Shown: positions 10,268 through 52,277, numbered from the stretch's first letter. The stretch is DNA of 64,000 bases from Alphaproteobacteria bacterium (GCA_965220745.1 CBDCQT010000012.1:416001-480000); one strand, 5' to 3'. Translations and numbers: made by a program. The notes: generated from the sequence alone by a model not told the origin.

Positions 10268-10515
10268 CAGACACGCACGACGCCGAAACATGGTCTGGTG
10301 CACGGTGCTTGGCGCCCGTGCCAGGATCGCGCCATGAGGTGTGTAGGCGATCGGAATACGGCCGGCCGGAGGAGCGTTCGCTCCGCAATCGAGAGGCTGC
10401 CCCTCTCAGTATGCACGCGGTCGTCCCTGCGGAATCCCGTCCATCCCGCTGAATCCCGGCGTGTCCCGCAACAAAATTAAGGTTGTGTGTCCCACGTGAG
10501 ACGCGGGAGGGGTAG

Positions 10516-10543
10516 TTGCGCCCCGCCAGCGCAACCCTATAGT
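10516..10543 (+). promoter_or_regulatory. Putative sigma70 promoter of the truncated mnmA copy (leaderless geometry)
   Basis: TTGCGC-16 bp-TATAGT, ATG 7 nt downstream, no Shine-Dalgarno; identical copy at 52151-52178. Confidence 0.55.
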
Positions 10544-10550
10544 GCGCGCC

Positions 10551-10642
10551 ATGCCCGCAGAGACCCTCGACCTCGGCCTCGCCAAGCCGCGCCGGCAGAC
10601 GCGCGTGGTCGTTGCCATGTCCGGCGGCGTCGATTCGTCCGT
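10551..10642 (+). pseudogene. mnmA: Truncated 5' fragment of mnmA
   Basis: Encodes [31 protein letters not shown], then runs into the miniature element and stops at 10691; 4 nt differences from the intact copy. Confidence 0.92.
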
Positions 10643-10735
10643 TGTTGTTCGGCACGTCGGTTGCGCGCCGACCGGCGCAATAAGCTATTGAAGTGGCTCG
10701 ATACTGGGGGGTCACAATTGCACGCCGGGCAACAC
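10642..10735 (+). mobile_element. MITE-like miniature element, copy 1
   Basis: TIRs TGTTGTTCGGC...GCCGGGCAACA; roughly 80-85% identical by eye to the reverse complement of 46708-46802. Confidence 0.8.
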
Positions 10736-11001
10736 ACCAGGCTGTCCACGGTCTCGATCGACCGCATGCTCTGGACCGTCGAGCGCAGGAAGTGCGCCAG
10801 CGGGCGGCCCTCCCGCACCGTGATCAGCAGCTCGGCCTCTGCATTCGCGAGGATCGCGGCCTGACGGCGGAGATGATCTTCGAGTTGCGACAGCCGCGCA
10901 GGCGGATAGATCGGAACCGGGATGCACCCTGCATAGAGAATCCCGGCGAAGGCGTGCAGAAAGCCGGCGCATGTGGGCAGCATCAGGGCGACGCGGGCGC
11001 C
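10736..11001 (-). pseudogene. Internal fragment of a fatty acyl-AMP ligase-like (AMP-binding) gene
   Basis: GARVALMLPT..FLHAFAGILYAGCIPVPIYPP..ILANAEAELLIT; cut at both ends. Confidence 0.75.
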
Positions 11002-12004
11002 GGAACTCGGTGAACAGGCGCGCCGGCTGGCCGCTCTCCCGCGAGCGGGCTTCGGCCAGGTCCAGGTCCGGTTGCAGGCGGTCCGTGAGCCGCGAGTTTC
11101 GGGCGAGGCCGAAGACGTAATCCACGCCGTTCTCCTCGCACCAGGCCATCAGCGCCTCGCGGGCGAAGCCGGAGTCTGCGCGCAGCACGATCTCGACGGC
11201 GGGCCAGCGGGCGCGGATGCGCGCGACGATGCGCGCCACCTCTTCGGCCGCGCCGGCGCTGGCGTCGATGTCGGCCCGCCTCAGCTTGGCCGCCAGCAGG
11301 TGATCGCCGCAGAAGATGTAGAGCGGCAGATAGCAGTAGCAGTCGTAGTAGCCGTGGAAGAAGCGGCCTTCCTGATGGCCGTGCAGCGGGTCGTCGGTGG
11401 CATCCAGATCGAGGATCAGCCGCTCAGGGGCTTGCCCGTGGGCGTCGAGGAAGAGATCGACGAAAAGCGTCTCGATTGCCTCAGGCTCATGACCGATCCG
11501 GCGGTAGCGATGGGCGCCCGAAGGCGCGTGCTCCAGACGGTTCAGCGTCGACTTGCCCGCAAGCGGCGCACAGCCCGCACGCCTGGCCTCCAGACGCCCC
11601 AGCACCACACCCAGAACAGGGTCGTGGCGCAGCGCGTCGTGGTCGATCAGGTCCTCGTAGCCCAACGCGATCCCGAACACCCGCTGGCCCACCAGGGTCG
11701 CGACATCGTGCACCACACGCCCGGCCGCGCGCCCGTCCGAGAAGCAGGCGGCGAAGCGATCCACCAGTCCGATCGCCCGGTCCGTGGCGCCGAGCAGCAA
11801 GGCGCCCGCGTCCGAGGTCATCACGCCGCCGCCGAAATCGGCCACCACATCACGACCATCGAGACGTGCAAACTGCATCGCGGCAGCGCTACACTCTGCG
11901 GGCATCGGGGAACTCCTCTGCAACTGATTAGGTCTTTGTTGCAGAAGAGCTTTCTCACGAGCAGAGCCCCGATGCACACTCTACTCGTGAGAAATACGGG
12001 CTAG
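11002..12004 (-). mobile_element. IS1380-family element, 3'-truncated (transposase starts at 11905)
   Basis: FGGGVMTSDAGALLL, GYEDLIDHDALRHDP, LAGKSTLNRLE, LDLDATDDPLHGHQEGRFFHGYY, RADSGF; end CTAGCCCGTATTTCTCACGAG; similarity stops at RLFTEF. Confidence 0.9.
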
Positions 12005-12184
12005 GCCCGGCTGAGCCGTGCGAGCACCCGCAGTATATCCCAAAGTCTCCAAAATCTGTCGTCCGACGATAAATCGGTCAGGCATGGGGCACAGCATGGG
12101 ACCTCGATGCCGGCCAGGTTTCCTTGCCCCGCGGCGGTGTGCCGCAACGGCCGAGCGCGCTTAGAAACTCAAATCGGTCTTCCC

Positions 12185-12230: not shown

Positions 12231-12398
12231 AATCATAAGACCGGATGCCTTGGGTCAATGGGGAGGATGTCCGCGTGCGCTCCGCCGCGAGACCATCATC
12301 TGAGAGCGAAATGTCGACATGATTGCACGATCGGATACTCACGAGCCCATTGCCGAGACTGGACTCTCAACTACCGCAAATCGAAAGGAGTGCTCGAC

Positions 12399-13373
12399 AT
12401 GAAACGCACCGGCTTCATGGCAGTCGTCGCGGCAGGTGTGGCGATGCTGTTCGCATCGTCCGCGTCTGCCCTCGACAAGATCACGGTCGCCTACTTCCTC
12501 GAGTGGCCGACCGCGAACCAGGTCGCGCAGCTCGAGAAAACCTATGACGAGGCGATGGGCGTCGAAGTCGAGTGGCGCGCCTTCGGCAACGGCAACGAGA
12601 TGAGCCAGGCGATGGTCTCTGGCGACGTGCAAATCGCCTATTCCCAGGGGCTGGTTCCGTGGGTGGTCGCGGTCACCAACGGGTTGCCTCTCAAGCTCGT
12701 CGGCGTGGCGGTGAGCTATGCGGAGGCCGACAACTGCGTCGTCCACGCCGACACCGGCATCACGCAGGCGAATGCGAGCGAGCTTGAGGGCAAGCAGATC
12801 GCGACTCCGATCGGCAACGTGACCCACTACAAGCTCTTGCGCACCCTCGATCACCTGGGAGTGGACGCCTCGAAGGTCAACATGGTGCAGATGAATGGCG
12901 CCGACGCGTCGGTCGCGCTCGCACGCGGAGACGTCGCCGCGGCCTGCGCCTTCGGCGGCCCGCTCCAGCGGATGAAGGAATACGGCGACGAGCTGATGAC
13001 TCCGGCAGAGCAGGAGGCCATCGGCATTCGCGTCTTCGACGTCGTCTCGGTGACCGAGAGCTTCGCCAACGACCATCCCGACCTGCTGCGGAAGTTCATG
13101 GAGGTCACCGATCAGGCGAATGCGGCCTACAACGCGGATTCGGCGCCATTCGTGGAGACCATCTCCCAGGCAGCCGGCATGGACCTCGCGGCAACGGAAG
13201 ACATGCTCGGCATGTTCTCGTTCCCGTCGGCGGCGGACCAGAAGTCGGAGGCCTGGATGGGCGGCACCGTGCAGGCCTTTACCAAGGAAGTGGCGGATTT
13301 CTTCGTCCAACAGGGCCAGCTTGACAGCGCTCTCGACAGCTACGCCTTCGCGATCGACGACAGCTTCCTCTAA
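12399..13373 (+). CDS. tauA: Taurine/sulfonate ABC transporter substrate-binding protein
   Basis: AAGGAG RBS; signal peptide; VAYFLEWPT, AEADNCVV; precedes tauB/C and xsc. Confidence 0.85.
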   Translation: MKRTGFMAVVAAGVAMLFASSASALDKITVAYFLEWPTANQVAQLEKTYDEAMGVEVEWRAFGNGNEMSQAMVSGDVQIAYSQGLVPWVVAVTNGLPLKLVGVAVSYAEADNCVVHADTGITQANASELEGKQIATPIGNVTHYKLLRTLDHLGVDASKVNMVQMNGADASVALARGDVAAACAFGGPLQRMKEYGDELMTPAEQEAIGIRVFDVVSVTESFANDHPDLLRKFMEVTDQANAAYNADSAPFVETISQAAGMDLAATEDMLGMFSFPSAADQKSEAWMGGTVQAFTKEVADFFVQQGQLDSALDSYAFAIDDSFL

Positions 13374-13419
13374 GCGCGACCGAGCGCGACTGCGGCTGGC
13401 AGGCCGCAGATGCACAACT

Positions 13420-13456
13420 CCTCCCTGCCTCCCCAAGCCTTCGGGAGGCAGGGAGG
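13420..13456 (+). other. Strong intergenic hairpin after the SBP gene (mRNA stabiliser or partial terminator)
   Basis: CCTCCCTGCCTCCC-9 nt-GGGAGGCAGGGAGG, 14 bp perfect stem, no U tract. Confidence 0.6.
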
Positions 13457-13578
13457 GCATTTCGCTGCCGATAGCCGGTCCTCGCGCAAAGCGGGGGTCG
13501 GTGCCGTGTGCTCGTGGTGCGGGACGCCTGCGGCTGTTACGGTCCAAGCTCTTTGGGACCCGCGAAGAAGGGAGCGTG

Positions 13579-14382
13579 ATGGACGGGCTGGTCATCGACA
13601 ACGTCTCGATGGTCTTCACCTTGCCCAATGGCGGCAAGGTCCACGCCCTCCAGGACGTCTCGCTGCACCTGAAGCCCGGCGAGCTGATGGCTGTACTGGG
13701 TCCCTCGGGCTGCGGCAAGACCACGCTGCTCAACATTGTCGGCGGCTTTCTGGCGCCGACCGCAGGCCAGGCGCTTCTCAACGGTCACCAAGTGACCGGC
13801 CCGCACAAGGAGCGCGGCGTGGTGTTCCAGCAGGGTGCGCTCTTCGAGTGGATGACAGTCGCCCAGAACGTGAGCTTTGGCCCGCGCATGTGCGGCGTGC
13901 CCCGCGCCGAGATCAAGCAGATCGTACGCCGCCTGCTCGACACCGTGGCGCTACAGGGATTCGCCGACAAGCCGGTCTATCAGCTCTCAGGCGGCATGCA
14001 GCAGCGCGTGGCCCTGGCGCGGTGCCTCGCGAACGACCCGGACGTGATCCTGATGGACGAGCCGCTGGGCGCGCTGGACGCGCTCACCCGCGAGAAGATG
14101 CAAGGTCTCGTGCTCAAGCTGTGGAAGGAGACCGGCAAGACCATCATCCTGATTACCCACTCTGTCGAGGAAGCGCTCTTCCTCGGTGAGCGCCTGGTGG
14201 TGATGGCGCCGCGCCCCGGCCGGATACATAAGGAATACACGCTACCCTTCGCCGAGCAGGGGGTCGAAGGGGACGCGCGCGCAATCAAGGCCCAGCCCGA
14301 CTTCATCACTGCCCGCGAGGAAATCCTCTCCATGATCTGGGAGATGGAGGAGGAGATCATGGGCGGCGCCGACGCACGCTGA
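13579..14382 (+). CDS. tauB: Taurine/sulfonate ABC transporter ATPase
   Basis: GPSGCGKTT, LSGGMQQR, LMDEPLGALDALTRE. Confidence 0.88.
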   Translation: MDGLVIDNVSMVFTLPNGGKVHALQDVSLHLKPGELMAVLGPSGCGKTTLLNIVGGFLAPTAGQALLNGHQVTGPHKERGVVFQQGALFEWMTVAQNVSFGPRMCGVPRAEIKQIVRRLLDTVALQGFADKPVYQLSGGMQQRVALARCLANDPDVILMDEPLGALDALTREKMQGLVLKLWKETGKTIILITHSVEEALFLGERLVVMAPRPGRIHKEYTLPFAEQGVEGDARAIKAQPDFITAREEILSMIWEMEEEIMGGADAR

Positions 14383-14392
14383 CGAGAAGAGC

Positions 14393-15310
14393 ATGGCGGC
14401 GCGCAATCAAAACAAGCAACCCTCGCGCTGGGGCATGTGGCTCGGCATCGCGGACACCTCGTTCACCCGGCAGAAGACGATCAAGTTCGGCGATGCGTCG
14501 GCGGTGAACTCCGGCCGCCTGTGGTCGGTGCTCACTCTGATCCTGCTGATCCTGGCCTGGTGGATCGCGACCATCAGCGGGTTCATCGATCCCCTCTTCT
14601 GGCCGCCGCTCGAGGGCAGCCTCTATCCGTGGGACAACCCCAATCGGGCGAGGCCCGGCGTGGTCGACCGCTTCGTGAGCCTCTTTGTCGACGGCTACCG
14701 CAACATCTCGCTCTGGGAGCACGTCGGGACCTCGGTCAAGCGCGTGCTCCTCGGCGTGATCATCGGCGCGCTGGTGGGGATCCCGCTTGGCTTTGCCATG
14801 GGCCTGAACTCGGTGGCGCGCGGGCTGTTCGACCCGATCGTCGAGTTCATCCGTCCGATTCCGCCGCTGGCGCTGATTCCGCTGGTCATCCTGTGGCTGG
14901 GGATCGACGAGGTCGCCAAGATCTTCCTGCTCTTCCTGGCGGCGCTCTTCATCATGTTGATCGCTGCCCGCGCCGGCGTGAACTCGGTGCAGATCTCCAA
15001 GGTCCACGCGGCCTACTCTCTGGGCGCTTCCAAGTTCCAGGTGCTGCGCCACGTCATTCTGCCGAACGCCTTGCCGGAGATATTCACGGGGCTGCGGACC
15101 TCCATGGGCGTCTGCTGGGGAACGCTGGTCGCGGCCGAGCTGGTGGCGGCGGATCAGGGCGTCGGCTCGATGATGATGATTGCGAAGAACTTCCTTCAGA
15201 CCGACGTGGTGGTGATCGGCATCATCATCATCGGCGCGATCGGCTTCGCCATCGAGATGTTCATGCGCTTGCTCGAATCTTGGTTGATCCCCTGGAAGGG
15301 GAAGGGCTGA
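14393..15310 (+). CDS. tauC: Taurine/sulfonate ABC transporter permease
   Basis: RPIPPLA, AAYSLGAS, LPNALPEIFTG, WGTLVAAEL. Confidence 0.88.
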   Translation: MAARNQNKQPSRWGMWLGIADTSFTRQKTIKFGDASAVNSGRLWSVLTLILLILAWWIATISGFIDPLFWPPLEGSLYPWDNPNRARPGVVDRFVSLFVDGYRNISLWEHVGTSVKRVLLGVIIGALVGIPLGFAMGLNSVARGLFDPIVEFIRPIPPLALIPLVILWLGIDEVAKIFLLFLAALFIMLIAARAGVNSVQISKVHAAYSLGASKFQVLRHVILPNALPEIFTGLRTSMGVCWGTLVAAELVAADQGVGSMMMIAKNFLQTDVVVIGIIIIGAIGFAIEMFMRLLESWLIPWKGKG

Positions 15311-15377
15311 TGTCCCGGACCTTGTCCAAGTTTGTCTGGCCGCAATGCGGGAACGAAAGGAACAGGAACGTAACGCC

Positions 15378-17144
15378 ATGAGAATGACGACTGAAGAGGC
15401 CTTCGTGAAGGTCCTGCAACGGCACGGAATCGAGCACGTATTCGGCATCATCGGCTCGGCCTTCATGCCGATATCGGATCTCTTCCCGAAGGCCGGGATC
15501 ACCTTCTGGGACGTGGCCCACGAGAGCAACGCCGGCTTCATGTGCGACGGCTATACCCGCGCCACCGGCAAGATCGCCATGTGCATCGGCCAGAACGGCC
15601 CCGGCATCACCAATCTCGTGACCCCGGTGAAGACCGCGTACTGGAACCACACCCCGCTGTTGCTGGTGACCCCCCAGGCGGCCAACAAGACCATCGGCCA
15701 GGGCGGCTTCCAGGAAGTGCCGCAGATGGCGCTGTTCGAGGAGATGGTCTGCTACCAGGAGGAGGTGCGTGATGCCTCCCGCATGGCCGAAGTCCTCAAC
15801 CGGGTGATCGAGAACGCGGTGCGCCAGTCGGCGCCGGCGCAGATCAACGTGCCGCGCGATCTCTGGACCCAGGAGGTCGATATCGAGCTGCCGCCGGTGG
15901 TGCATCTGGAGCGCGCCGCGGGCGGCGAGGACTCGGTGGCGGAAGCCGCGCAGCTGCTCTCGGAGGCGCGCTTCCCGGTCATTCTCTCCGGCGGCGGCGT
16001 GGTCATCGGGGGCGCGATCGATGAGTGCCGGGCGCTGGCCGAGCGCCTCGACGCGCCGGTCTGCTCGGGCTACCAGCACAACGACAGCTTCCCCGGCTCG
16101 CACCCGCTTGCCGTGGGTCCGCTGGGCTACAACGGCTCCAAGGCCGCGATGGAGCTGATAGCGCAGGCCGACGTGGTGCTGGCGCTCGGCACCCGCCTCA
16201 ACCCATTCTCGACGCTGCCGGGCTACGGCATCGACTACTGGCCGAAGGACGCGGCGATCATTCAGGTGGAACTGAATCCGGATCGCATCGGGCTGACCAA
16301 GAAGGTGACGGTCGGGATCTGCGGCGATGCCAGGAAGGTGGCGCGCCAGCTACGCGAGCAGCTGTCGGCCGGCGCCGGCGATGCCGGCCGCGAGGAACGC
16401 CGGGCGACGATCCACAGCACCCGCTCGGCTTGGCTGCAGACGCTTGCCGGCATGGACCACGAGGACGACGATCCCGGAACCACCTGGAACGTGGACGCGC
16501 GAACGCGCGAACCCGACCGGATGTCGGCGCGGATGGCGTGGCGCGCGATCCAGGACGGCTTGCCTAAGGACGCCATCATCTCGTCGGACATCGGCAACAA
16601 CTGCGCCATCGGCAACGCGTATCCCACCTTCGAGGAGGGCCGGAAGTACCTCGCGCCCGGCCTCTTCGGCCCGTGCGGCTACGGCTTTCCGGCCATCCTC
16701 GGCGCCAAGATCGGCTGCCCGGTCGTGCCGGTCGTGGGCTTCGCCGGCGACGGCGCCTTCGGCATCTCCATGAACGAGATGACCTCCATGGGGCGCGAGG
16801 GCTGGCCCGCGATCACCATGGTGGTCTTCCGCAACTACCAGTGGGGCGCGGAGAAGCGGAACTCGATCCTCTGGTACGACAACAACTTCGTCGGCACCGA
16901 GCTGAATCCTAACCTGAGCTACGCCAGGGTGGCGGACGCCTGCGGGCTGAAGGGCGTCGCGGTGAGCACCATGAGGGAGCTGACGACGGCGCTCCGAGAA
17001 TCCTGCGAGGCGCAAGCCGACGGGGTCACCACCTTCATTGAGGTGATCCTGAACCAGGAGCTGGGCGAGCCCTTCCGGCGCGATGCGATGAAGAAGCCCA
17101 ACGTGGTGGCGGGCATCGACGGCGCCGACATGCGCCCCCAATAG
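15378..17144 (+). CDS. xsc: Sulfoacetaldehyde acetyltransferase (ThDP)
   Basis: [60 protein letters not shown]. Confidence 0.95.
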
Positions 17145-19292: not shown

Positions 19293-19359
19293 GACTCTTC
19301 GCCTTTCGCCAGTTGGAGATCGAATCGTAGCCGACAGGGCCGGCCAGACAATCGCCTGC

Positions 19360-21371: not shown

Positions 21372-21407
21372 GTTGGTCGGTTCCGAATCGTGCGGGCGCT
21401 GCTTTGC

Positions 21408-36689: not shown

Positions 36690-36690
36690 G

Positions 36691-43892: not shown

Positions 43893-46688
43893 CTACGGGT
43901 GCGGCACTTCCGGCGGTTTGTCCAGCCCATGCCGCTGAGCCACGGAGACGGCGAGAGCCCGCTTATTCACGCCCAGCTTGGCATAGATATTCTTCAAGTG
44001 AAATTTCACTGTTGGTTCCGAGAGCCCCAAGTGCCGGGCGATGCGCTTGTTCGAGTGACCTTGCGCAAGTTGTTCCATGACTTCCAGTTCACGTGAGCTG
44101 AGAATATGCGCTGCCTCTCCATGTTCCCCAGAGCGCATGTCAGACAATAATCGGGCGACGAATTCCACTTCAACCTCACTCATGTCGCCGATCCCGGTGG
44201 TTCGAACGACTGCCTGCACCAATTGCGCCAGAAATCTACCCTCTTCGGCAAAGGAACCATAAAATCCGCACGAGCTGCCTAGGGCGATAGCTTGCTTGAA
44301 GGGCTTGGCGGCGGCGCGACTGTCTCCGGATTCATGCAGCGCCATGGACTGCAGGATTAATCCCTTTACCCGGAAGCGAACCGCATTTGCTTCCTGGGAC
44401 TTGCGAACCGCCTCGTTCAGTAACTCCACTGCATGGACGGCGTCGCCAAACCGAATGTGGTATCGGGCCAGGGAAAACGCCGCCATATAGAAGCCGCGCC
44501 AACACGCCCCGGCATCTCCTGCATCGGCGTGAGTCAGGCGATCGATATCCTGCAAAGCCAACTCGGCCAGATCGGCCCGTTCCGCGCGGACAAACAGATC
44601 CAGCCGCTTGTAACAAATAAGGTGCTGAAGCCGGTGCATGTTTCGCCGCCTGATCGTCCGCTCCGCTTGATCGAGTATCTCGGCGGCGGCCTCTGGACCA
44701 TTGTCGGCATATGCCACCTCCATGGCCACCGTGTATCCCGGAACATAAAGCTCGCTCCACCCTTCCCTGACCTCGATATCGTGAAGCGAATTGAAAATAC
44801 GCCGGCTGGCGGCTATTGGGTCGCCGCGTTCGAGATGGATTTCCGACAAGAGCACGGAAGCGATGCCCGCGAGCCCCCTGTCAGCGGGAAAATACCGCTC
44901 AGCCAGGTCTAGCGCCGTTGACCTTCGTTTCTGGGCATCGGAGAGAAGACCTTCTTCAAGATCGATAATGCTAATGTTGATATGAATAAAGAACTGGAGA
45001 TATTTGGCATCGAGATCCCGATAGTAGGCCATGGATCTCTCGCCGGACAGTCTGGCATTCTTCAGATTGCCTGCCTGGATCTGCGTGACGCAAAGAATAT
45101 TATGAAGAACTCCTCGAACGAGCGATTCCGATTCTGGTGTCGATCGTGTCAAACTCTCAAAGCGAGCGATATCTTCATCTGAAATCATCCGGTCTTCATA
45201 AATTCGGAGAAGCGCGCCGATCAGCGTGATCTCGTCGGCCAGATCGCGATCGTCGGTTGCGCCCTGGGCGACGACTTCGTCGAAAAGCTTGGCGGCCTCA
45301 ACGATCCGCCCTTCTTTCGCAAGGACGTAGGCCAAACACAACTTGGCGCGCGGACTGACATGAACCGCATTCGTAGGAATATGATCCAGGAGAGATCGAA
45401 GATAACCCACACCCTGTCTTATGCCGACTAGTACGCCGCCAGCGTTTTCGACATATCCTATCGCCCGCGCGTAAGCGTTTCCTGCCTTGGCGTGGTGTAT
45501 AGCGGACTGGAGATCATCGGCAGCGAAGAACCAATCGGCGGCGCGTCGATGCAACGCATCGACATGTTCCCTGCCGAGATAAATCTGCTGTTGCCGCAAG
45601 AACTCCAGAAACAGTTGGTGATGCCTGAACCACCCGTCTTCGGGAGCATCGCTCCTCGACATCAGGACTCCGGCCTTCCAAGTCTCGAGTAATTTCTCCC
45701 ATCCGTCATTTCGCTCTCGAACAGCATCTGCAAGATCGCCGTTCAAACGCTCCAGGTGCGCCGTTTCCAGAAGAAATTGCTGCTGGTCTTCCGAGAGTTG
45801 TTTGAACACGCGTTCATTGAGATAATCGGCCAACTCGGCCCGCGATCCGGACAGGCTGCTGACATGTCGCTCGAAGGGAACGCTGCCATTGTGGGTCAGG
45901 TGTGTCAGTTGAACCGCGACCGGCCACCCTTCAGTCCGCTCAATCAACTGCCTCGAAACCTGCTCGTCCAGCGGCTGATCGAACAGCGCTCCTATGTCCC
46001 CTTCGCCGAATCTAAGGTCGTCGACCGTGATCTCGTGGACTTCACCTTGCAATCTCAATCCTGAGACCGGAATGCCCGACCGCTCTCTAGTTGCGATGAC
46101 GATATGCAAGGTTTGTGGGCTGTTGTGGATAAGGTATTCGAAAAGCTCGAGGCAAGCGCCGGTATCAGCGAAATGCGCGTCGTCTATGATCAGGCATGCC
46201 TCCACACCGCTTTCGCGCAACAGCGTTGTCAACATCGAGAGGCGAGCAAGCGGCTCCGTATCGCCCGAAACGGAAGCGTGAACATCGAGGTCAGCCCGCG
46301 CCGCTTGTTCCAGGAGCGCGATCAACGACGTCGGATCGCAATCGCGGCGTTCAATTTGAACCCAGGCCCAGGCAATACCGGAACGGCCTAACCTCGCGCG
46401 CAGCTGATTCAGTAGGGTCGTCTTGCCATATCCGGCCGGTGCGTCGATCAGCGTCAGACGCCGCCCAAGATTGTCCTGAATGCGGTCGAGGAGCGGTGTC
46501 CGTTCGATCAGTACGACCCTGTCCGGTGAAGCCATCGACCCATGCCCGGCAACTGGTCCGGCTCGAATCTTAGTCCATGGACGGTTTGTCGACCAAGCTG
46601 GCTGATCGGCGGACCACAGCGGAGCAGGACGGCCCGCCTGGCAGGACGATCGTCTCCAGGTCTGGCCGCCTGAATTCCAGGCGGCCAC
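43893..46688 (-). CDS. MalT-like (LAL) ATP-dependent LuxR regulator (start uncertain)
   Basis: TKIRAGP, APAGYGKTT, IDDAH, TEGWP, WFRHHQLF, C-terminal LSSRELEV..SNKRIA..TVKFHLKNIYAKL. Confidence 0.9.
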   Translation of the reverse strand: MAAWNSGGQTWRRSSCQAGRPAPLWSADQPAWSTNRPWTKIRAGPVAGHGSMASPDRVVLIERTPLLDRIQDNLGRRLTLIDAPAGYGKTTLLNQLRARLGRSGIAWAWVQIERRDCDPTSLIALLEQAARADLDVHASVSGDTEPLARLSMLTTLLRESGVEACLIIDDAHFADTGACLELFEYLIHNSPQTLHIVIATRERSGIPVSGLRLQGEVHEITVDDLRFGEGDIGALFDQPLDEQVSRQLIERTEGWPVAVQLTHLTHNGSVPFERHVSSLSGSRAELADYLNERVFKQLSEDQQQFLLETAHLERLNGDLADAVRERNDGWEKLLETWKAGVLMSRSDAPEDGWFRHHQLFLEFLRQQQIYLGREHVDALHRRAADWFFAADDLQSAIHHAKAGNAYARAIGYVENAGGVLVGIRQGVGYLRSLLDHIPTNAVHVSPRAKLCLAYVLAKEGRIVEAAKLFDEVVAQGATDDRDLADEITLIGALLRIYEDRMISDEDIARFESLTRSTPESESLVRGVLHNILCVTQIQAGNLKNARLSGERSMAYYRDLDAKYLQFFIHINISIIDLEEGLLSDAQKRRSTALDLAERYFPADRGLAGIASVLLSEIHLERGDPIAASRRIFNSLHDIEVREGWSELYVPGYTVAMEVAYADNGPEAAAEILDQAERTIRRRNMHRLQHLICYKRLDLFVRAERADLAELALQDIDRLTHADAGDAGACWRGFYMAAFSLARYHIRFGDAVHAVELLNEAVRKSQEANAVRFRVKGLILQSMALHESGDSRAAAKPFKQAIALGSSCGFYGSFAEEGRFLAQLVQAVVRTTGIGDMSEVEVEFVARLLSDMRSGEHGEAAHILSSRELEVMEQLAQGHSNKRIARHLGLSEPTVKFHLKNIYAKLGVNKRALAVSVAQRHGLDKPPEVPHP

Positions 46689-46808: not shown

Positions 46809-47711
46809 CTAATAGTCGCGGAGCTCCGAGGCTTCGGTGGCGGCCTTGGCACCGCCGCGCATCCGCCCGCTGATCCAGACGCCGAGGATCGTCGCCATAT
46901 AGGGCAGCGAGAGCAGCACGTCGTGCGGGATGCTCGCGCCGAAGAGCAACTGCAGCCTGATTCCCGCGACGCCCACCAGGCTGAAGAACATCGCGGCGAA
47001 GGTTGCGCCAACCGGATGCGCCGCGCCGAAGATGACGGCAGCGAAGCTCATGAAGCCGCGCCCTGCGGTCATGTTGTGGGCGAAGATGGTGAGGCCGCCT
47101 GCAGCGAGCTCGGCACCGCCGATGGCGCCAAGGACCCCGCCCGCCGCCAGCGCGATGAGCCGCGCGGTGGCTGGATTGGTGCCCACGCTGCGTGCCGCGA
47201 GCGGGTGCTCGCCGGCAGCGGCCAGACGCAGGCCGAAGCGCGTGCGGCGCAGCAGTACCCACATGCCCCACACCACAAATGGCATCATCAGAACGAAGAT
47301 CGAGAGCGCGCCGTAGGGGCCGAAGGCCGCGCCCAGCCGGGGCACGCCAAAAGGCGCGGTCACGGCGGCGAGGCTACCGAAGAGCGCCTGGACGGCCAGC
47401 GCTGTCCCGCCGATGCCGAGGCCCGTAAGTCCCAAACCTGCGATGATCGGGTTGGCACCCAGCTTCTCGATCACGAACCAAAGCAGCACGGAGGCGGCGA
47501 CGCAGAGCATGCAGGCGATGCCGATGGCGGCCGGGAACGAACCGGTCAGCACGATGCCGAGAATTGTCGCGCAGGCGCCGATGATCATCACGCCTTCGAG
47601 GCCGAGGTGCCAGACGCCGGCGCGCTGGGCGATGACGCCAGCCATGGTGACGTAGACCAGCGGCGTGCCGGAGCGCAGAATCGCCACCATGAACTCGTGG
47701 AACTCGGTCAT
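46809..47711 (-). CDS. Nucleoside/sugar (BPD_transp_2) ABC permease
   Basis: RAGVWHLGLEG, TRFGLRL.AAGEHP, MTAGRGF, LPY. Confidence 0.88.
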   Translation of the reverse strand: MTEFHEFMVAILRSGTPLVYVTMAGVIAQRAGVWHLGLEGVMIIGACATILGIVLTGSFPAAIGIACMLCVAASVLLWFVIEKLGANPIIAGLGLTGLGIGGTALAVQALFGSLAAVTAPFGVPRLGAAFGPYGALSIFVLMMPFVVWGMWVLLRRTRFGLRLAAAGEHPLAARSVGTNPATARLIALAAGGVLGAIGGAELAAGGLTIFAHNMTAGRGFMSFAAVIFGAAHPVGATFAAMFFSLVGVAGIRLQLLFGASIPHDVLLSLPYMATILGVWISGRMRGGAKAATEASELRDY

Positions 47712-48754
47712 GTTGGCAGCCTGGCGGCCCGCAGGAGGCGGTCTAACAGCCCTGATTTCGCAGTGATGAAGAGCGCGACGGAGGCGTTGAAGATGTCGAT
47801 GGCGGCGGCTGGCAACCCGGCCAGGATCGGCAGGTAGAGCGCGGCCGACGCAAGGCCGCCGAAGAACATGCTGACGACCGCCGTCGCGAGCACCGATAGG
47901 TTAGCGACCAGCGCGATCAACACCGCGGTGAAGCCGTGGCCGGGCAGAAATCCGCTCGCGATGCGCCCGGTCGGGCCGAGAAGCTCGATGGTGCCGGCGA
48001 GCCCGGCCAGTCCGCCGCTGATGAGGAAGCTCGAAAGGCCCAGGGTCCAGAGCCGCGCGCCCTGAAAGCGCACCATGGTCGGGTTGCGCCCGGCGAGGCT
48101 CGCCAGCATGCCGAAGGGCGTACGGTTGACCAGCACCCACATGGCGAGCGCGACGGCGGCGGCAATGCCGATTATGGCGGGCGAGATGCCCTGTGAATCG
48201 CTGATCCGATAGACCGCCGGCAGCAGTGGGCTCGCCGCCTGCTGGCCGGTGCCGGAGGGGTCCTTGAGCGGACCCGAGGTGACGTAGACCAGCACGAGGG
48301 CTGCGATGAAGTTTCCCATCAGCGTCGTGATGACCTCGTCGGTACCGGAGCGAAGCCGCAAGTATCCCGGCCAGAGCGCCCAGAGCGCGCCCCCCGCCAT
48401 GCCGGCGAGAAAGGTCGCCGGCAGCACGAGGGCGGCCGGGCCGCCGCCGAGCAGGTCGGTGACGAAGGCAGCGCAAATGGCGCCCACATAGAACTGGCCC
48501 TGCGCACCGATATTGAAGAAACCGCAGCGGAATGAGATTGCGACGCCCGTCGCGGTGATGAAGAGCGGGAGCGCCCAGCGCAGGCTCTGCGCCCAGCCGC
48601 CCGCCCGCAAGAAGGCGCCCTCCACGACGCTCTCGAGCATCAGGAGCGCCAAGTAGCCGGCGAGCTCGAAGACGATGCCGCAGAGCGCGAGCGCGAGAAC
48701 GATGAAGGCGAGCGTGCGGATAACCGCACCTGCGCGGATGCTGATGCCGCTCAT
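47708..48754 (-). CDS. Nucleoside/sugar ABC permease
   Basis: FNIGAQGQ, DEVITTLMGNF, SGGLAGLAG, GHGFTAVLIAL. Confidence 0.88.
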   Translation of the reverse strand: MSGISIRAGAVIRTLAFIVLALALCGIVFELAGYLALLMLESVVEGAFLRAGGWAQSLRWALPLFITATGVAISFRCGFFNIGAQGQFYVGAICAAFVTDLLGGGPAALVLPATFLAGMAGGALWALWPGYLRLRSGTDEVITTLMGNFIAALVLVYVTSGPLKDPSGTGQQAASPLLPAVYRISDSQGISPAIIGIAAAVALAMWVLVNRTPFGMLASLAGRNPTMVRFQGARLWTLGLSSFLISGGLAGLAGTIELLGPTGRIASGFLPGHGFTAVLIALVANLSVLATAVVSMFFGGLASAALYLPILAGLPAAAIDIFNASVALFITAKSGLLDRLLRAARLPT

Positions 48755-49145
48755 TCGACCGCTCCGGTCATGGCGCGGCCCACCGCGGCGATGTCGTAAG
48801 GCGGGACGAACTCGGCGACGATGCGGCCCGAGAGCATGACCACCAGGCGGTGGCTGACGTCGAACAACTCGTCGAGATCAGACGAGATCAGCAACACACC
48901 GCAGCCGCGACCGGCCGCTTGGCGGAGAGCCGACCAGACGAAGGCGGTGGCACCGATGTCGAGCCCGCGCGCGGGCTGCGCGGCGACGATGAGGCGCGCG
49001 TCTTCGTCGATCTCGCGCGCGAGGATCACCTTCTGCGCGTTGCCGCCAGAAAGCGCGCCGGCGTTCTGTGCCGCCGACGCATAGTGCACGCCCCAGGCTT
49101 GGAGCGCCTCGTCGCAGCGCCTGCGCAGGGCGGCCGGATCACCGG
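48751..49145 (-). pseudogene. C-terminal fragment of a sugar-type ABC ATPase
   Basis: LSGGNAQKVILARE, QPARGLDIGA, ISSDLDE present; Walker A and N-terminal domain missing. Confidence 0.85.
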
Positions 49146-49244
49146 CACGCCGAACGTCGGCTTCGGGCTCACGGGCGCCGGCGCGCGGGAGTACCGCGTA
49201 GGCTGGCGGCTGACTTCGGCGATCTGGGGCGATCGCGGCTTCGA

Positions 49245-49446
49245 GGTCACCCGGAATGATCCCCGAGTTCGTGCGCAATCTGAATGCCTGGACCAGGTCG
49301 CGATAATTCGGGAAGCCCAGCGTTGACGGCGCCGGGCGACACGCTGGATCCACCAACGACAATTGGCCGGCATCTGAGTGCAAGATGGGCCGCAACGAGC
49401 CCTACCCCTGCAGTTCAGGCCGAGAATGCAAGCGGTGTTGCGGCGC
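49245..49446 (+). pseudogene. Decayed C-terminus of a YecA/UPF0149-like protein with SEC-C motif
   Basis: PGMIPEFVRNLNAW, in-frame stop, then KMGRNEPYPCSSGRECKRCCG (degenerate SEC-C). Confidence 0.55.
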
Positions 49447-49527
49447 GTCCCGGCTGGTGCATTGTCGGGGAGGCTCACACCGTTCGATGCAATGGTCCGT
49501 CGAAATGTCGGCGGGCCGAGCGGATGG

Positions 49528-50673
49528 CTACGGCTTCATTCTCCTGGCGATGGCCCGGCCCACCCTTTCGGCGGCCCGTTCGATTTCTCGGTCCCCGAGG
49601 TGAGCGTAGCGCAGGGTCATGCGGACATTGGAGTGGCCGAGCAGCCGGGACACCACCGGCACCGGCACGCCGTGCATCACCGCGTGGCTGGCCACTGTAT
49701 GGCGAAGGTCGTGGAGGCGCACATCCTCGATGCCGGCTTCCTTGCGGACCCGGTACCAAAGACCGAGGTCGGGGTGGCGTGGCCGAGACGGATCGCGCGG
49801 CGACGGAAACACGAACGGACTCTCTCCCCGCGGCTGCCATTCGAGGATACGCCGGGCCTGCGAGTTGAGGGGGACCTTCCGGGGCCCGGTCTTGCTGTCG
49901 GCCAACATGAGCATGTCGCCCTGAACCTCGGACCAGCGCAGGCGCACGATCTCGCCCCTGCGGCACCCGGTCAGCAGCAGGAGCCGGATCACGTCGGCCT
50001 GCTGGCGGTTCCTCCGTCCGGCTTGCCCGTCGAGCGCCCTGTGGAGGCGGGCGATCTCCTCGCGGGAGAGGAAGCGGGTGAGTTCCGGCCGGCGGTTGAG
50101 CTGGATGCCTGCGGTCGGGTTGGCGTCGGCGTGGCCGCGCGCGATGGCGAAGTTCATGATCTGGCGGAGGACGTCGAGGCTGTGATTGGCATTGCCGGGG
50201 GCGGTGCGGCTGAACGCGTCGAACCACCGCCTGACCCGCGCGGGCGTGATGCGGTCGAGCGGGATCGACCCGAACTCCGGCAACAGCCGGCTCGCGAGGA
50301 GCGAGCGGTGACCTTTTTTCGTGGAGGGTTTGTAGCGCGCGAAATGAGCGTCCCTCCACTCGCCCTCAACGAACTCCCGGAACAAGGGGGCGCGGCGTCT
50401 GGGCACGCTCTCCTTCTCAGGCTCGTGGGCGAGCTGCCGCGCGAGGCAATCCCGGCGCGCCTCCGCGATGGTCCTGAGCGACACCGGACCCAGCGAGATG
50501 CGTTTCGAGCGCCCGCCGGATCGCTGCAACCAGACATAGCTCTTCCCACCGCCGGGCCGGACCCGGACCCCGAGGCCGGGGGTGCGGTCGTCCCAGACGG
50601 TGAATTCCCGTTCTCGCGGACGGAGACGTTCGACGGCGGCATCGGTCAGTCGCATGCGCTCCCTGCCGGCCAT
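49528..50673 (-). CDS. Tyrosine recombinase/integrase 2 with N-terminal arm-binding domain
   Basis: LTDAAVERL..VWDDRTPGLGVRV; LTGCRRGEI, HDLRHT, LLGH, TLRYAH. Confidence 0.93.
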   Translation of the reverse strand: MAGRERMRLTDAAVERLRPREREFTVWDDRTPGLGVRVRPGGGKSYVWLQRSGGRSKRISLGPVSLRTIAEARRDCLARQLAHEPEKESVPRRRAPLFREFVEGEWRDAHFARYKPSTKKGHRSLLASRLLPEFGSIPLDRITPARVRRWFDAFSRTAPGNANHSLDVLRQIMNFAIARGHADANPTAGIQLNRRPELTRFLSREEIARLHRALDGQAGRRNRQQADVIRLLLLTGCRRGEIVRLRWSEVQGDMLMLADSKTGPRKVPLNSQARRILEWQPRGESPFVFPSPRDPSRPRHPDLGLWYRVRKEAGIEDVRLHDLRHTVASHAVMHGVPVPVVSRLLGHSNVRMTLRYAHLGDREIERAAERVGRAIARRMKP

Positions 50674-50676
50674 CGA

Positions 50677-51801
50677 TCAGTTTCCTTCCAGCACGGCGCC
50701 AACGATTTCGGCGGCTTCCATCGTCATGACGTCGCTGAGGTGCGTGTACTTGAGGGTCGTCTCCGGGATGGCGTGGCCGAGCAACCGGCCGATGGCGAGC
50801 ACGGTCTCTCCCTCGCGCAGGGCGATGCTGGCATGGGTATGGCGGAGGTCGTGGAGACGAACGTCGCGCAACTCCGACTCGGCACGGAGCTTCCACCAGA
50901 ACCGGTCCAGCCAGCCGTCGCCCTGCGGGCCTGCCGTCCGGTACGAGGGAAACACCCAGCGGCCCTTTCGCTCCAGGGTGTCGAGAATGTTCCTGGCCGG
51001 CTCGGACAGCCAGACGGTTCGAGGACCCGTCTTCGAGTCACGGAGGAACAGGCGCCCCTCTCGGTAGTCGGACCAGCGCAGCGTGAGGATCTCGCCCTTC
51101 CGGCATCCGGTCAGCAGGAGGAGACGCACGACCGCCACCTGCTCCGGATGCTGCCCCTCATGGGCCGCGAGTGCCGTCGACAAGCGTCGGATCTCATCGT
51201 CCGACAGGAAGCGCTCGCGCCCCTCGCGGCGGTAGCGCCGGATGCCCTTGCACGGGTTCGAGGCCTCGGGCCTGAGCCCCATCGCCTCGGCCTCGCGCAT
51301 AATGACGGAGAGCACCGGCATCGACCGGTCGGCGGCGACCGGGGTGGCGCGCAGCGAAGCGAACCAGTTGACGACGTCCCGGCTGTCGATGTCGGCGACC
51401 TGCCGTCCCGCGAAGTGCGGGAGGATCTGGCTGCGCAGGTAGGCCCGGTTCACCGCCAGCGTTCCCGGCTTCCAGACCCAGCTGCGGCGCTCGAACGCGG
51501 CCTCGGCGACGGCCTCGAAGAGGGTCTCGGCGGGATCGCGTGGCGGGTCCTCCCCCAGGCGGATCGCGGCGAGCATGGTCACGGCGCGCGATCGTGCCTC
51601 GCGAACATCCATGGTGGCGGCGTCGCCTATGATCTTCCAGACGCGCTCGCCGCGATGCCGGCAGTGGACGAAGAAGCGCTTGGCGCCCGAGGGTAGCACG
51701 CGGAGGCCGAACCCCCTGAGCTTGCCGTCGCGAATGTCGTATGCGGTCTTGCGGGGCTTGAAGGCGCGGACGCGGGCGTCGGTAAGGTCGGTTCTGGGCA
51801 T
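50677..51801 (-). CDS. Tyrosine recombinase/integrase 1 with N-terminal arm-binding domain
   Basis: LTDARVRAF..IRDGKLRGFGLRV; LTGCRKGEI, HDLRHT, LLGH, TLKYTH. Confidence 0.93.
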   Translation of the reverse strand: MPRTDLTDARVRAFKPRKTAYDIRDGKLRGFGLRVLPSGAKRFFVHCRHRGERVWKIIGDAATMDVREARSRAVTMLAAIRLGEDPPRDPAETLFEAVAEAAFERRSWVWKPGTLAVNRAYLRSQILPHFAGRQVADIDSRDVVNWFASLRATPVAADRSMPVLSVIMREAEAMGLRPEASNPCKGIRRYRREGRERFLSDDEIRRLSTALAAHEGQHPEQVAVVRLLLLTGCRKGEILTLRWSDYREGRLFLRDSKTGPRTVWLSEPARNILDTLERKGRWVFPSYRTAGPQGDGWLDRFWWKLRAESELRDVRLHDLRHTHASIALREGETVLAIGRLLGHAIPETTLKYTHLSDVMTMEAAEIVGAVLEGN

Positions 51802-51919
51802 CTCCCCTCTCCCGGTTTCGGTTGCATCCTGGGAACCGGGAGTTGACGGATCCGTCCGGATGCAACAATGTGGAGGAGAGAAAACGACCCTGTGTCAGAT
51901 AGTTAGCACCGCAGGTGCG

Positions 51920-52277
51920 TGGTCCGGTGTGAAACGCGCGGCGCTGGTGCCAGGATCGCGCCATGGGGTGCGAAGGCGGACGGAATCCGGCGGGCGGGAG
52001 GAGCGGGCGCTCCGCAATCGAGAGGCTGCCCCCTTCGCAGTCTGCAACGCGGTCGTCGTCCCAGCGGAATCCTGCCCATCCCGCTTAATCCCGGCGTGGC
52101 CCACAACAAAATTAAGGTTGTGTGTCCCACGTGAGACGCGGGAGGGGTAGTTGCGCCCCGCCAGCGCAACCCTATAGTGCGCGCCATGCCCGCAGAGACT
52201 CTCGACCTCGGCCTCGCCAAGCCGCGCCGTGAGACGCGCGTGGTCGTCGCCATGTCCGGCGGCGTCGATTCGTCCGT
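51920..52277 (+). repeat. Right copy of the direct repeat (putative attR); supplies the promoter and 5' end of intact mnmA
   Basis: Matches 10291-10642. Confidence 0.95.

Follow-up and report, generated by a model that had tools for sequence, protein, structure and literature searches.

The locus studied here raises the question of where an integrase-bearing island crossed into its host DNA, and whether the mnmA gene beside it still carries its native start. In the window, which is the whole stretch of 64,000 nucleotides that was analysed, 41,629 bp (from 10291 to 51920) separate tenA from intact mnmA and are bracketed by two diverged copies of the mnmA upstream region and first codons. The preliminary description had proposed an island that recombines inside the 5′ end of mnmA and rebuilds its promoter and N-terminus. 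We consider it probable that the crossover took place at a short core in the tenA–mnmA spacer, that mnmA and its promoter are native, and that the left copy derives from the flank of an earlier host, which the island took along. The features are arranged as follows.

9539–10267, plus strand: tenA (thiaminase II), host gene left of the island (Pfam TENA_THI-4, 8.1e-43)
10291–10300: proposed attL core, minus strand CACCAGACCA, first bases of the left repeat copy
10301–10642, plus strand: left copy, tenA–mnmA spacer and first 31 mnmA codons, Gln at residue 16; 81–96% identical to 51930–52277
10643–11087: junction-adjacent sequence without a family match; minus-strand open frame, GC3 0.78
11088–12007, minus strand: truncated IS1380-family transposase remnant (Pfam DDE_Tnp_1_4 positions 4–281 of 435 only)
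12258–18145, plus strand: sulfonate/taurine utilisation block with NMT1-type ABC transporter, xsc (sulfoacetaldehyde acetyltransferase) and pta (Pfam)
18150–22904, minus strand: citrate-synthase-like gene, both succinyl-CoA-ligase-like subunits, aldehyde dehydrogenase (Pfam)
23244–24974: mobile-element debris patch, group II intron fragment and transposase-like ORFs
23244–23469, plus strand: group II intron D1–D4 fragment (Rfam RF02005, 146 bits)
24160–24974, minus strand: frameshifted transposase-like ORFs (ORF translations)
24966–43465: mixed cargo (Pfam)
34956–35336: HTH transposase fragment within the mixed cargo (Pfam)
43893–46688, minus strand: LuxR/MalT-like STAND regulator, 931 aa (Pfam GerE, TPR_MalT, AAA_22)
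46809–49395, minus strand: two BPD_transp_2 permease genes and the 3′ remnant of their ABC ATPase gene (Pfam)
49528–50673, minus strand: Int2, downstream pair member, 381 aa (Pfam Arm-DNA-bind_3, Phage_int_M, Phage_integrase)
50677–51801, minus strand: Int1, upstream pair member, 374 aa (Pfam)
51802–51919: Int1 leader, island-side arm of the site, with a CGCACC half-site (minus strand, 51914–51919); conserved in module relatives
51920–51929: proposed attR core, minus strand CACCGGACCA, first bases of the right repeat copy
51930–53367, plus strand: spacer, putative promoter and intact mnmA (ATG at 52186; Glu at residue 16), read as native host DNA

The bracketing repeat and the island

The repeat consists of two direct copies of about 350 bp, at 10291–10642 (left) and 51920–52277 (right), with 41.6 kb between them. 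The outer segment (10291–10403 versus 51920–52032) is 81% identical over 113 nt, and the inner segment (10420–10642 versus 52055–52277) is 96% identical over 223 nt with 10 mismatches; a 6 bp indel separates the two. A block of 96 bp contains no mismatch (10469–10564 and 52104–52199), and the coding parts differ in four places (10565, 10595–10596 and 10613), a Q/E change among them. Both copies share a terminal identical block of 29 bp (10614–10642 and 52249–52277), beyond which they are unrelated, with 4 of the next 18 bases matching. This 29-mer occurs twice in the window, compared to an expectation of 0 from 100 shuffles. At the opposite end, the tenA-side sequence left of the repeat start is unrelated to the sequence left of the right core. 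The left copy forms an ORF of 46 codons that stops shortly past the SGGVDSSV codons, while the right copy continues into the intact gene. The architecture given in the preliminary description is thus confirmed, including the repeat over the mnmA upstream region and first codons, the end of the left copy at the SGGVDSSV codons (similarity ends at 10642), the divergence of the copies, and an intact mnmA, recognised by MnmA profiles, beside two integrase genes with Pfam matches.

The tenA product matches NCBIfam salvage_TenA at 131.8 bits (cutoff 130), and in the distant Tistrella mobilis plasmid pTM3 a tenA homolog (54% amino acid identity) lies directly upstream of mnmA. The intact MnmA matches Pfam tRNA_Me_trans (1.5e-73) and NCBIfam MnmA (3.2e-127). 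A consensus promoter scan of 51700–52300 gave no match.

The sequence between the repeats has a GC content of 0.660, compared to 0.699 and 0.695 in the flanks, and contains IS and intron debris plus one gene at 56–58% GC. This lowest GC of the island (0.56–0.58 over 44–47 kb) lies at the STAND regulator. Next to the left copy, the minus-strand frame of 10643–11087 has no Pfam match at E up to 1, and similarity of the following transposase remnant to plasmid IS1380 copies begins at about 11088 (blastn, query 489–1408 only). The sulfonate/taurine block comprises NMT1, ABC_tran, BPD_transp_1, TPP enzyme and PTA_PTB matches by Pfam, and its stretch from 15376 to 17140 is about 80% identical to annotated xsc genes of Azospirillum and Shinella plasmids. 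Pfam detects no intron-encoded protein for the group II fragment, and the neighbouring frameshifted ORFs presumably resemble IS21 IstA. The mixed cargo consists by Pfam of a GST-like gene, two family III CoA-transferases, a second NMT1 ABC transporter, an FAD oxidoreductase, an enoyl-CoA hydratase, a LysR regulator, a third ABC transporter and a hydantoinase/S-Me-THD/racemase set. The ABC ATPase remnant carries LSGGNAQKV, covers positions 72–132 of 137 of ABC_tran (E 0.016) and breaks off about 330 bp from Int2. Pfam found no relaxase, coupling protein or type IV secretion genes among the ORF translations (39 + 12 + 3), a scan that would miss an oriT and may miss small or novel mobilisation genes, and no excisionase-like gene was found in the island ORFs scanned. 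The lower GC, the mobile-element debris, the tenA–mnmA adjacency in Tistrella and the occurrence elsewhere of pair-bounded islands with empty sites support reading the 41.6 kb enclosed by the repeats as an inserted metabolic island that bears integrases and is apparently of non-conjugative type. In this respect, too, the preliminary description is supported.

A tandem integrase pair and its plasmid relatives

Int1 and Int2 are P4-like tyrosine recombinases with arm-binding domains. The genes are co-oriented, the Int1 stop lying 3 bp from the Int2 start codon, and the next ORF after the pair is the ABC ATPase remnant. The two proteins are 40% identical and share the R, HxLRH and LGH..Y motifs in register, and alignment of the Int1 catalytic domain to XerA (5hxy) keeps the R, H-x-x-R, H and Y positions. 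Over 120 protein clusters share at least 72% identity with Int1; NCBIfam returns only sub-threshold, Xer-type matches for the integrases.

Tandem P4-like integrase-pair islands are a grouping defined in this analysis and not a named family; both window integrases have the arm-binding domain and the complete catalytic motif set of the pair definition. At least two Int1 matches occur in 24 of the best 30 records, and all five PLSDB loci fetched for Int1 matches contain two adjacent integrase genes with a 4 bp overlap. In a tree of six pairs, upstream and downstream members are split by one branch (support 87/89; 88% of bootstrap trees), and Int2 groups with the downstream members of the five plasmid pairs, whose members are only 34–43% identical to Int1 and Int2.

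Three of these plasmids carry the pair at one end of an island of 11–27 kb delimited by direct repeats of 12–16 bp that begin with CACACC, and sister plasmids provide empty sites for two of the three. In the Sphingobium YBL2 plasmid, 26.7 kb lie between two 16 bp cores (15/16 identical), and the upstream integrase gene begins 12 bp from the core; the aligned site is uninterrupted in pSF1, and three more plasmids match the entire site-spanning query. The island of the Shewanella MR-1 megaplasmid spans 11.0 kb between perfect 13 bp repeats. S. baltica pS18501, in which one flank directly joins the other, provides the empty site, and the similarity of seven other Shewanella plasmids to MR-1 ends just before the core. 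The Polymorphobacter plasmid has two cores 20.7 kb apart (15/16 identical); pTAV1 has no second core within 50 kb. In all six loci a CACACC of matching orientation lies no more than 300 nt ahead of the first integrase gene (background chance 0.03–0.08 per locus), and the core of the three delimited islands lies 28–168 nt from the first integrase gene, with the target not rebuilt. The attachment site of the family is a short core that opens with CACACC and precedes the first integrase gene by a few tens to about 190 nt.

Position of the crossover and origin of the left copy

A counterpart of this site is present in the window. The attR core sits inside a family-type site CACACCGGACCACGCACC at 51914–51931, 130 nt upstream of the Int1 ATG, and its partner, the attL core, lies 24 bp past the tenA stop. 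The sequence CACCRGACCA occurs in the 64 kb only at 10291–10300 and 51920–51929 (expected 0.2; two or more in 0 of 100 shuffles). The plus-strand sequence of the site is GAAACA / TGGTCY / GGTGTG; it lies 24–33 bp past the tenA stop, and the mnmA start follows about 255 bp further on. The core repeat of the window is short and imperfect, with 9 of 10 bases matching, and is the weakest of the four family islands; its far-side half-site is TGCACC and not CACACC, and the tenA-side half-site is unlike CGCACC.

A spurious ORF over the Int1 antisense strand and leader, used as a query, matched 30 predicted proteins. The leader is conserved in this spurious reading frame from 95% down to about 50% identity. 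Eight matches run at least 15 residues beyond the end of similarity, which in all eight falls between 51889 and 51967, a range to be read with the fact that an indel in a non-coding frame also ends similarity; none reaches 52000. The 95% identical match ends at 51930, and two of the eight continue directly into sequence that, judged by eye, resembles IS transposase genes. Since the site and its partner start both repeat copies, and since Int1-module relatives lose similarity there, the crossover most likely lay in the spacer; therefore the right-hand mnmA and its upstream region would be intact native DNA.

We postulate that the Int1/Int2 module mobilised the island, which recombined at a CACACC-type core in the tenA–mnmA spacer. 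In an earlier, closely related host, imprecise excision ending inside mnmA would have picked up about 340 bp of the equivalent flank, comprising spacer, promoter region and 31 mnmA codons, and in the same event the island would have lost its own far end, now gene debris. The roughly 340 bp of the left copy would then be passenger DNA at that end. The island would have re-entered the present host by way of the core (by integrase) or of the 340 bp homology (by RecA), with an identical map either way. The lambda gal and bio transducing phages arise when imprecise excision takes flanking host DNA along; as in these, a former host's flank would be carried beside the attachment site and the element's own far end lost, a likeness drawn here from the map alone. 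The debris right of 10642, with its unmatched frame and truncated IS1380 element, fits an illegitimate junction. The repeat, the gene content, the conserved pair and, on other replicons, the core with its direct repeats are observed; we infer where the crossover fell in the window, the event of capture, the joint action of both integrases and the present immobility of the island. Several observations count against this spacer-core explanation. The left copy stops directly behind the SGGVDSSV codons, among the most conserved motifs of the gene, which we take as coincidence but which a crossover at that block would explain, and its N-terminus is identical to that of six intact MnmA clusters. Further points against it are the short and imperfect core repeat of the window, the indirect nature of the spurious-ORF evidence, the low identity of the plasmid pairs to Int1 and Int2, and pTAV1 with its single core.

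The mechanism of the preliminary description reads the same map in the other direction. There the island integrates in the mnmA 5′ end, strands being exchanged within the P-loop block of 29 bp; the native start of the gene is displaced and survives as the left copy, and 51920–52248 is an island-supplied promoter and N-terminus. The similarity of the copies does stop abruptly at the end of this PP-loop block, and integrases often choose conserved sequence of this kind. The left copy is also collinear with tenA, like the empty Tistrella junction, and its N-terminus agrees in 31 of 31 residues with six intact MnmA clusters (P0137–41 and P0143) whose bodies are 89.5–91.4% identical to the MnmA of the window. 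Furthermore, the integrases adjoin the intact gene, as described for dusA islands (PMC4482086). Against these points, the model needs an island arm of 447 bp whose inner boundary falls by chance on a well-formed core, at the very place where the eight Int1-module relatives lose similarity, and it departs from the three delimited family islands with their unreconstructed targets. The closest MnmA relative, P0142 (144 of 151 residues identical ahead of a frameshift), has an N-terminus of the right-copy type (30/31 residues, Glu16). Glu16 also occurs in four MnmA clusters at 90–91%, and the MnmA tree does not separate Gln16 from Glu16 as the native state of the lineage. Among 39 mnmA loci sharing 23 nt of the 29 bp block, the 21 with at least 1700 bp upstream, all from distant hosts, contain no Int1/Int2-like gene, and the island-derived tail of the left fragment is in no short protein of a set of 5.8 billion. 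A crossover in the 29 bp block is not supported, as a family core lies at the other end of the repeat (51914–51931 and 10291–10300); nor is a rebuilt promoter and N-terminus, as the boundary at 51889–51967 and P0142 both point to native DNA. As a whole, we regard this mechanism as unlikely. A literature search found no paper on mnmA as an integration target.

Less probable still is a Campbell-type insertion, in which a circle carrying about 350 bp of a relative's tenA–mnmA region entered by RecA-dependent exchange at any point of the repeat, the integrases being uninvolved in the last event. Such a repeat, at 81–96% identity and with a 96 bp identical run, is enough RecA substrate, and a single crossover leaves one copy truncated and the other complete; decay is apparent at either end of the island, whose scanned ORFs include no excisionase-like gene. 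This leaves unexplained why the outer edge of the homology lies on a family core beside Int1, and an earlier integrase-mediated stay at the same site is still required to load the fragment. As the last entry route only, it is compatible with the spacer-core explanation. An assembly artefact, with reads from an empty-site chromosome and a free or otherwise placed element, or from two strains, threaded via the repeat, is very improbable: many close Int1 and MnmA homologs do come from metagenome assemblies, and the 96 and 29 bp identical runs could mislead a short-read assembler, but the copies differ at many positions and were not collapsed, the junction of left copy and island must exist in some real molecule, and either threading gives the same element and the same core.

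Relation to known integrative elements

In dusA islands, the crossover lies inside the gene, within semi-conserved 21 bp repeats (Farrugia et al. 2015, PMC4482086; Vibrio IMEVchUSA3, PMC8409611), and the element, with one integrase and the excision factor RdfN, supplies a new 5′ end and promoter (PMC4482086; PMC8409611). The window shares with them a tyrosine-integrase island at a tRNA-modification gene, the integrase at the gene-proximal end and, at the far end, an incomplete second copy of the gene's 5′ end. Unlike in dusA islands, its core is in the upstream spacer, the gene is apparently untouched, and there are two integrases with no excision factor found. SXT/R391, at the 5′ end of prfC (PMC5812530, PMC8409611), likewise combines a P4-type arm-binding integrase with a translation-related target, in or adjoining which it lies; the island of the window differs in that no transfer genes were found and N-terminus replacement is unsupported.

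Several elements contain more than one recombinase. The int-int-hp-hp-tnfxB1-tmexCD1-toprJ1 units of about 15.7 kb, which their authors propose to be moved by both integrases (PMC7064769, PMC8547460), resemble the present family by description, with two adjacent integrase genes at one end of a cargo insert and several sites. They differ in their RND efflux cargo, their Pseudomonas and Klebsiella hosts and umuC as the proposed hot spot, and no core is defined in the passages that describe them. Enterobacterial plasmid matches to Int1 at E up to 1e-20 are single genes of about 27% identity. GInts comprise three Cre/Xer-like recombinases and GinD with repeats of 10–11 nt (Bardaji et al. 2017, PMC5385486); all recombinases are required for movement, and transfer genes are lacking (PMC5385486). 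Their multi-recombinase operon at the island end, beside the 5′ end of a host gene, and their short imperfect repeats are similar. Identity with a GInt was rejected, as the window has two integrases and not three, no GinD-like gene was recognised, and the ORF after the pair is the ABC ATPase remnant. Tn6283 and its related elements are likewise integrative elements with more than one tyrosine recombinase, IntA and IntB having 467 and 731 aa compared to 374 and 381 aa here (PMC5991714). The same partial likeness extends to RIT, with three genes, BIM, with one recombinase and an SMC-like protein, and Tn554 combinations; Van Houdt et al. (2012, PMC3414803), who describe these, also mention unexplained pairs of related recombinases on plasmids, Famint11.

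We tentatively suggest, at slightly less than even weight, that Int1 and Int2 represent a widespread and so far uncharacterised type of two-subunit P4-like integrase, with translationally coupled genes from two ancient lineages, a CACACC core and cargo islands of 11–42 kb in chromosomes as well as plasmids of Alpha- and Gammaproteobacteria, for which neither excision factors nor transfer genes are known. If true, an element that has swapped its own far arm for a 340 bp host flank could re-enter related hosts by homology, and such re-entry would, from sequence alone, resemble gene-start replacement.

The mnmA repeat and its relatives

The island of about 41.6 kb lies between the two copies of a diverged direct repeat, which is present where the preliminary description placed it, at 10291–10642 on the left and 51920–52277 on the right. 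The copies align at 81% over 113 nt (10291–10403 versus 51920–52032) and, beyond a 6 bp indel, at 96% over 223 nt with 10 mismatches (10420–10642 versus 52055–52277). Identical runs within the repeat extend over 96 bp and, at its terminus, 29 bp. The window contains this 29-mer twice (0 expected), and past 10642 and 52277 the two sequences match at 4 of 18 bases. The left copy begins 24 bp after tenA (9539–10267) and carries an open reading frame (ORF) of 46 codons, consisting of 31 codons from mnmA and a short unrelated tail. The right copy continues into intact mnmA, and two integrase genes occupy the right end of the island; both points had been described earlier and are borne out. No tRNA genes were found in the window, and no Rfam family matched either repeat copy.

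On plasmid pTM3 of the distant Tistrella mobilis, tenA (54% amino acid identity) lies about 55 bp upstream of mnmA (62% amino acid identity), so that the 41.6 kb separating these genes here represent an insertion. The GC content of the island is 0.660, compared to 0.699 and 0.695 in the flanks. There is good support for the island and for its origin through an integrase.

The 96 bp block that is identical between the copies (10469–10564 and 52104–52199) lies upstream of the mnmA start and contains a TTGCGC-N7-GCGCAA palindrome. In the same block, a TATAGT hexamer ends 7 nt ahead of the mnmA ATG, a placement that would suggest a leaderless or nearly leaderless transcript. A scan for consensus promoters reported nothing in this region upstream of mnmA.

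The two copies encode different MnmA N-termini, with Gln16 on the left and Glu16 on the right. Using the first 40 MnmA residues as query, we observed exactly the left copy's Gln16 N-terminus in six protein clusters with a body about 90% identical, while Glu16 occurs in four clusters at 90–91% and in the closest relative, P0142. In a quick MnmA tree, one subclade unites the Gln16 sequences, and those with Glu16 have no clear placement. P0142 had appeared to join an island-type N-terminus (30/31) to a divergent body (68.6%); this candidate was rejected, as it is a frameshifted close relative with 144/151 identical residues. Short relatives of the 46-residue left-fragment ORF were likewise set aside, as all 14 matches resemble ordinary MnmA starts cut by contig ends; the island-derived tail was found in none of the 14.

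A DNA scan of genome contigs with 23 nt of the P-loop block returned at least 116 stretches from many phyla. This 23 nt stretch recurs verbatim across these phyla, and the block is thus a generic PP-loop motif in common codons. Among the matches listed, 39 are mnmA and 77 have no MnmA match, the latter presumably being other PP-loop ATPase genes; no contig carried two P-loop matches and no close relative of the host appeared. At least 1700 bp of upstream sequence was available in 21 of the 39 listed mnmA loci, and an Int1- or Int2-like gene was found in none of these 21.

The integrase pair and its attachment-site core

The right end of the island is formed by two integrase genes.

49528–50673, minus strand: Int2, the downstream member
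50677–51801, minus strand: Int1, the upstream member, 3 bp from Int2

Int1 and Int2 share 40% identity. Each comprises arm-binding, central, and catalytic domains, with the Arg, His-x-x-Arg, His, and Tyr positions conserved. Relatives of Int1 make up more than 120 protein clusters at 72–94% identity, mainly from metagenome assemblies, and 17 full-length clusters (P0017–P0033) reach 90% or higher; the best matches in PLSDB are 34–42% identical, and the best match among phages, at 30%, offered no useful lead. Two or more integrase matches occur in 24 of the best 30 PLSDB records. We opened five of the PLSDB loci (Novosphingobium pP6W1, Polymorphobacter p29334-2, Shewanella MR-1 megaplasmid, Sphingobium 2pYBL2-2, and Paracoccus pTAV1), and at each of them two integrase genes lie side by side with a 4 bp overlap. 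When the six pairs are placed in one tree, a single branch splits the upstream from the downstream members (support 87/89; 88% of bootstrap trees), so the pairing is an old one that has been maintained. No paper describing a tandem P4-type integrase pair with a defined core was found in the literature searched.

Two Int1 homologs (P0025 at 92% and P0125 at 73%) and an MnmA of the Glu16 type with a 91% identical body (P0152) are each reported from a contig of 4,170,122 bp. Judging by this equal size alone, one related genome seems to hold two modules of the pair family.

In three of the plasmids, an island has the integrase pair at one end. Between Sphingobium YBL2 and its sister plasmid pSF1, similarity is lost 12 bp ahead of the first integrase gene and returns 26.7 kb away; a 16 bp sequence lies at both ends of the break (15/16 identical) and once in pSF1, and a query spanning the YBL2 site is matched whole by three other plasmids. 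In the MR-1 megaplasmid, 11.0 kb are flanked by a perfect 13 bp repeat, and S. baltica pS18501 joins both flanks around a single repeat copy. In seven further Shewanella plasmids, similarity to the integrase-upstream region ends just before this core. Polymorphobacter carries two cores 20.7 kb apart (15/16 identical). The YBL2, MR-1, and Polymorphobacter cores all start with CACACC, and this motif is found in the same orientation 28–192 nt upstream of the first integrase gene in 6/6 loci including the window, at a background chance of 0.03–0.08 per locus. PLSDB gave no informative relatives for empty sites of the Novosphingobium and pTAV1 pairs, and no second core was found within 50 kb in pTAV1.

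The 20.7 kb island of Polymorphobacter p29334-2 (about 78.3–98.9 kb) is a defence island, comprising type I restriction-modification and DUF262/DUF3696 genes, a HipA toxin pair, and an HD/AAA gene set. The MR-1 island (about 32.3–43.3 kb) encodes two bacteriocin-like peptides, a peptidase-domain ABC exporter, an HlyD adaptor, and an S9 peptidase. Just within the integrase-side arm of this island, and again just outside the far junction, lies a 12 nt run, ATGGTTGTTTGT.

The corresponding site in the window, CACACCGGACCACGCACC, spans 51914–51931 on the minus strand at a distance of 130 nt from the start codon of Int1, and occurs nowhere else in the window. For its inner 10-mer, the 64 kb contain one further match, at 10291–10300 with 9/10 bases identical; 0.2 such matches are expected, and two or more were seen in 0 of 100 shuffles. 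With these two 10-mers the right and the left copy of the repeat begin, and the sequences outside them are unrelated, with tenA at the left and the Int1 leader at the right.

A spurious plus-strand ORF (51575–52150) spans the Int1 start in antisense, the leader, and most of the upstream region of the right copy; a search of 1.84 billion representative proteins gave 30 matches to it. Eight of the 30 run at least 15 residues past the end of similarity, which falls between 51889 and 51967 in all eight, none reaching 52000; in the one with 95% identity it falls at 51930. Two of the eight lead from the end of similarity directly into other sequence, which we take to resemble IS630-like and IS21-like transposases. 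In the more distant of these relatives, the residues spanning the core imply conserved GGTGCG and GGTGTG around six variable bases, as read back from codons and not from DNA. This support is independent but indirect, as loss of similarity in a non-coding frame can also result from indels; the end shared by the relatives of the Int1 module nevertheless coincides with the core.

Position of the crossover

We favour, with moderate confidence and as the simplest reading, a crossover at the core in the tenA–mnmA spacer. The right end of the island would then be the core beside Int1, and the spacer, promoter region, and mnmA to its right would be native, while the left core, 24 bp after tenA, would form the other junction. 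The approximately 340 bp past the left core would lie inside the island as a diverged copy of the native right flank. We postulate that they were taken up during an imprecise exit from an earlier, closely related host. One end of this excision would fall at codon 31 of mnmA in the earlier host and the other inside the far end of the island itself, which would explain the debris from 10643 onward. Re-entry could have proceeded through the core or through the captured homology, both giving the same map.

The preliminary description had placed the crossover in the 5' end of mnmA, at the 29 bp P-loop block, with the island replacing the promoter and N-terminus. This reading accounts for the left copy ending right after the SGGVDSSV codons, a point that our preferred crossover at the spacer core leaves as a coincidence of where the captured piece stops. 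However, it needs a larger coincidence: an island arm of 447 bp would have to place its inner edge exactly at the family core, which is also where relatives of the Int1 module lose similarity. We consider it unlikely, and the claim specific to mnmA as the target is probably not correct, as the core adjoins Int1, at the other end of the repeat. A last entry purely by homologous recombination, for which the captured homology could serve, appears less probable again, and an assembly artefact is very improbable.

No paper describing mnmA or the tenA–mnmA spacer as a target was found in the literature searched; the TIGER island database may list the site. For mnmA/trmU as an integration target, this literature yielded only a hot spot near mnmA in Erysipelothrix (PMC12785378).

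Island contents and relation to known elements

The cargo of the island is metabolic, and several insertions and truncations mark its interior.

Features of the island interior
11088–12007: truncated IS1380 remnant, similarity limited to this interval
23244–23469, plus strand: group II intron domains D1–D4 (Rfam RF02005, 146 bits)
24160–24974, minus strand: two overlapping transposase-like frames, broken by a frameshift
43893–46688, minus strand: LuxR/MalT-type STAND regulator, 931 aa, in a 56–58% GC stretch, far lower than elsewhere in the island or in the flanks
48751–49395, minus strand: ABC ATPase gene with its 5' end missing, cut about 330 bp from the end of Int2
Cargo, sulfonate or taurine block: NMT1-type ABC transporter, xsc (about 80% identical to plasmid copies), and pta
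Cargo: citrate-synthase-like gene, succinyl-CoA-ligase-like genes, and aldehyde dehydrogenase
Cargo: two family III CoA-transferases, FAD oxidoreductase, and enoyl-CoA hydratase
Cargo: two further ABC transporters and a hydantoinase/racemase set
Cargo: LysR regulator and the LuxR-STAND regulator

The STAND regulator is probably of separate foreign origin. Neither a reverse-transcriptase ORF nor a match to later intron domains was found in 22800–25200, and the RF02005 match thus looks like a dead intron fragment within the island. The translations of 24160–24974 presumably resemble the N-terminal part of the IS21 IstA transposase; Pfam gave no family for the frame at 24519–24974. As the ABC ATPase gene is truncated near Int2, the cargo beside the integrase module has been cut, by deletion or by the module's arrival. 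Pfam found no relaxase, secretion, or excisionase genes in the island and gave no support for an AMP-ligase at 10712–11098, which was rejected. Inverted repeats bounding the IS beside the left junction were not convincing, nor were arm-type repeats common to 51802–52249 and 10643–11090, where two 10-mers are shared.

The window resembles gene-start-replacing elements on the surface; the features that define such elements are lacking or equivocal here. GInts carry three Cre/Xer-like recombinases with GinD, and their repeats, of 10–11 nt, lie at the 5' end of an ABC gene (PMC5385486); Tn6283 encodes IntA (467 aa) and IntB (731 aa) (PMC5991714). RIT, BIM, and Tn554 combinations are unlike the window in gene content, and recombinase pairs without explanation on plasmids are noted in the same source (PMC3414803). 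The 15.7 kb tmexCD1-toprJ1 units, for which umuC is a proposed hot spot, are reported to carry two adjacent integrases at one end (PMC7064769; PMC8547460).

A long diverged repeat that ends inside a gene can mislead. If the island carries a captured flank, the rule that crossover occurs where the repeat ends indicates the wrong end here, and automated island mappers guided by such ends could then name the wrong target gene. With the CACACC core motif, many islands that lack annotation could be delimited, among them defence and efflux islands on plasmids. Should both proteins prove necessary, the pair would constitute a natural two-component integrase with arm-binding domains, of interest for recombination mechanism and genome engineering. 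The lasting interest lies in a conserved module of two integrases whose core can be recognised, together with an example of probable flank capture.
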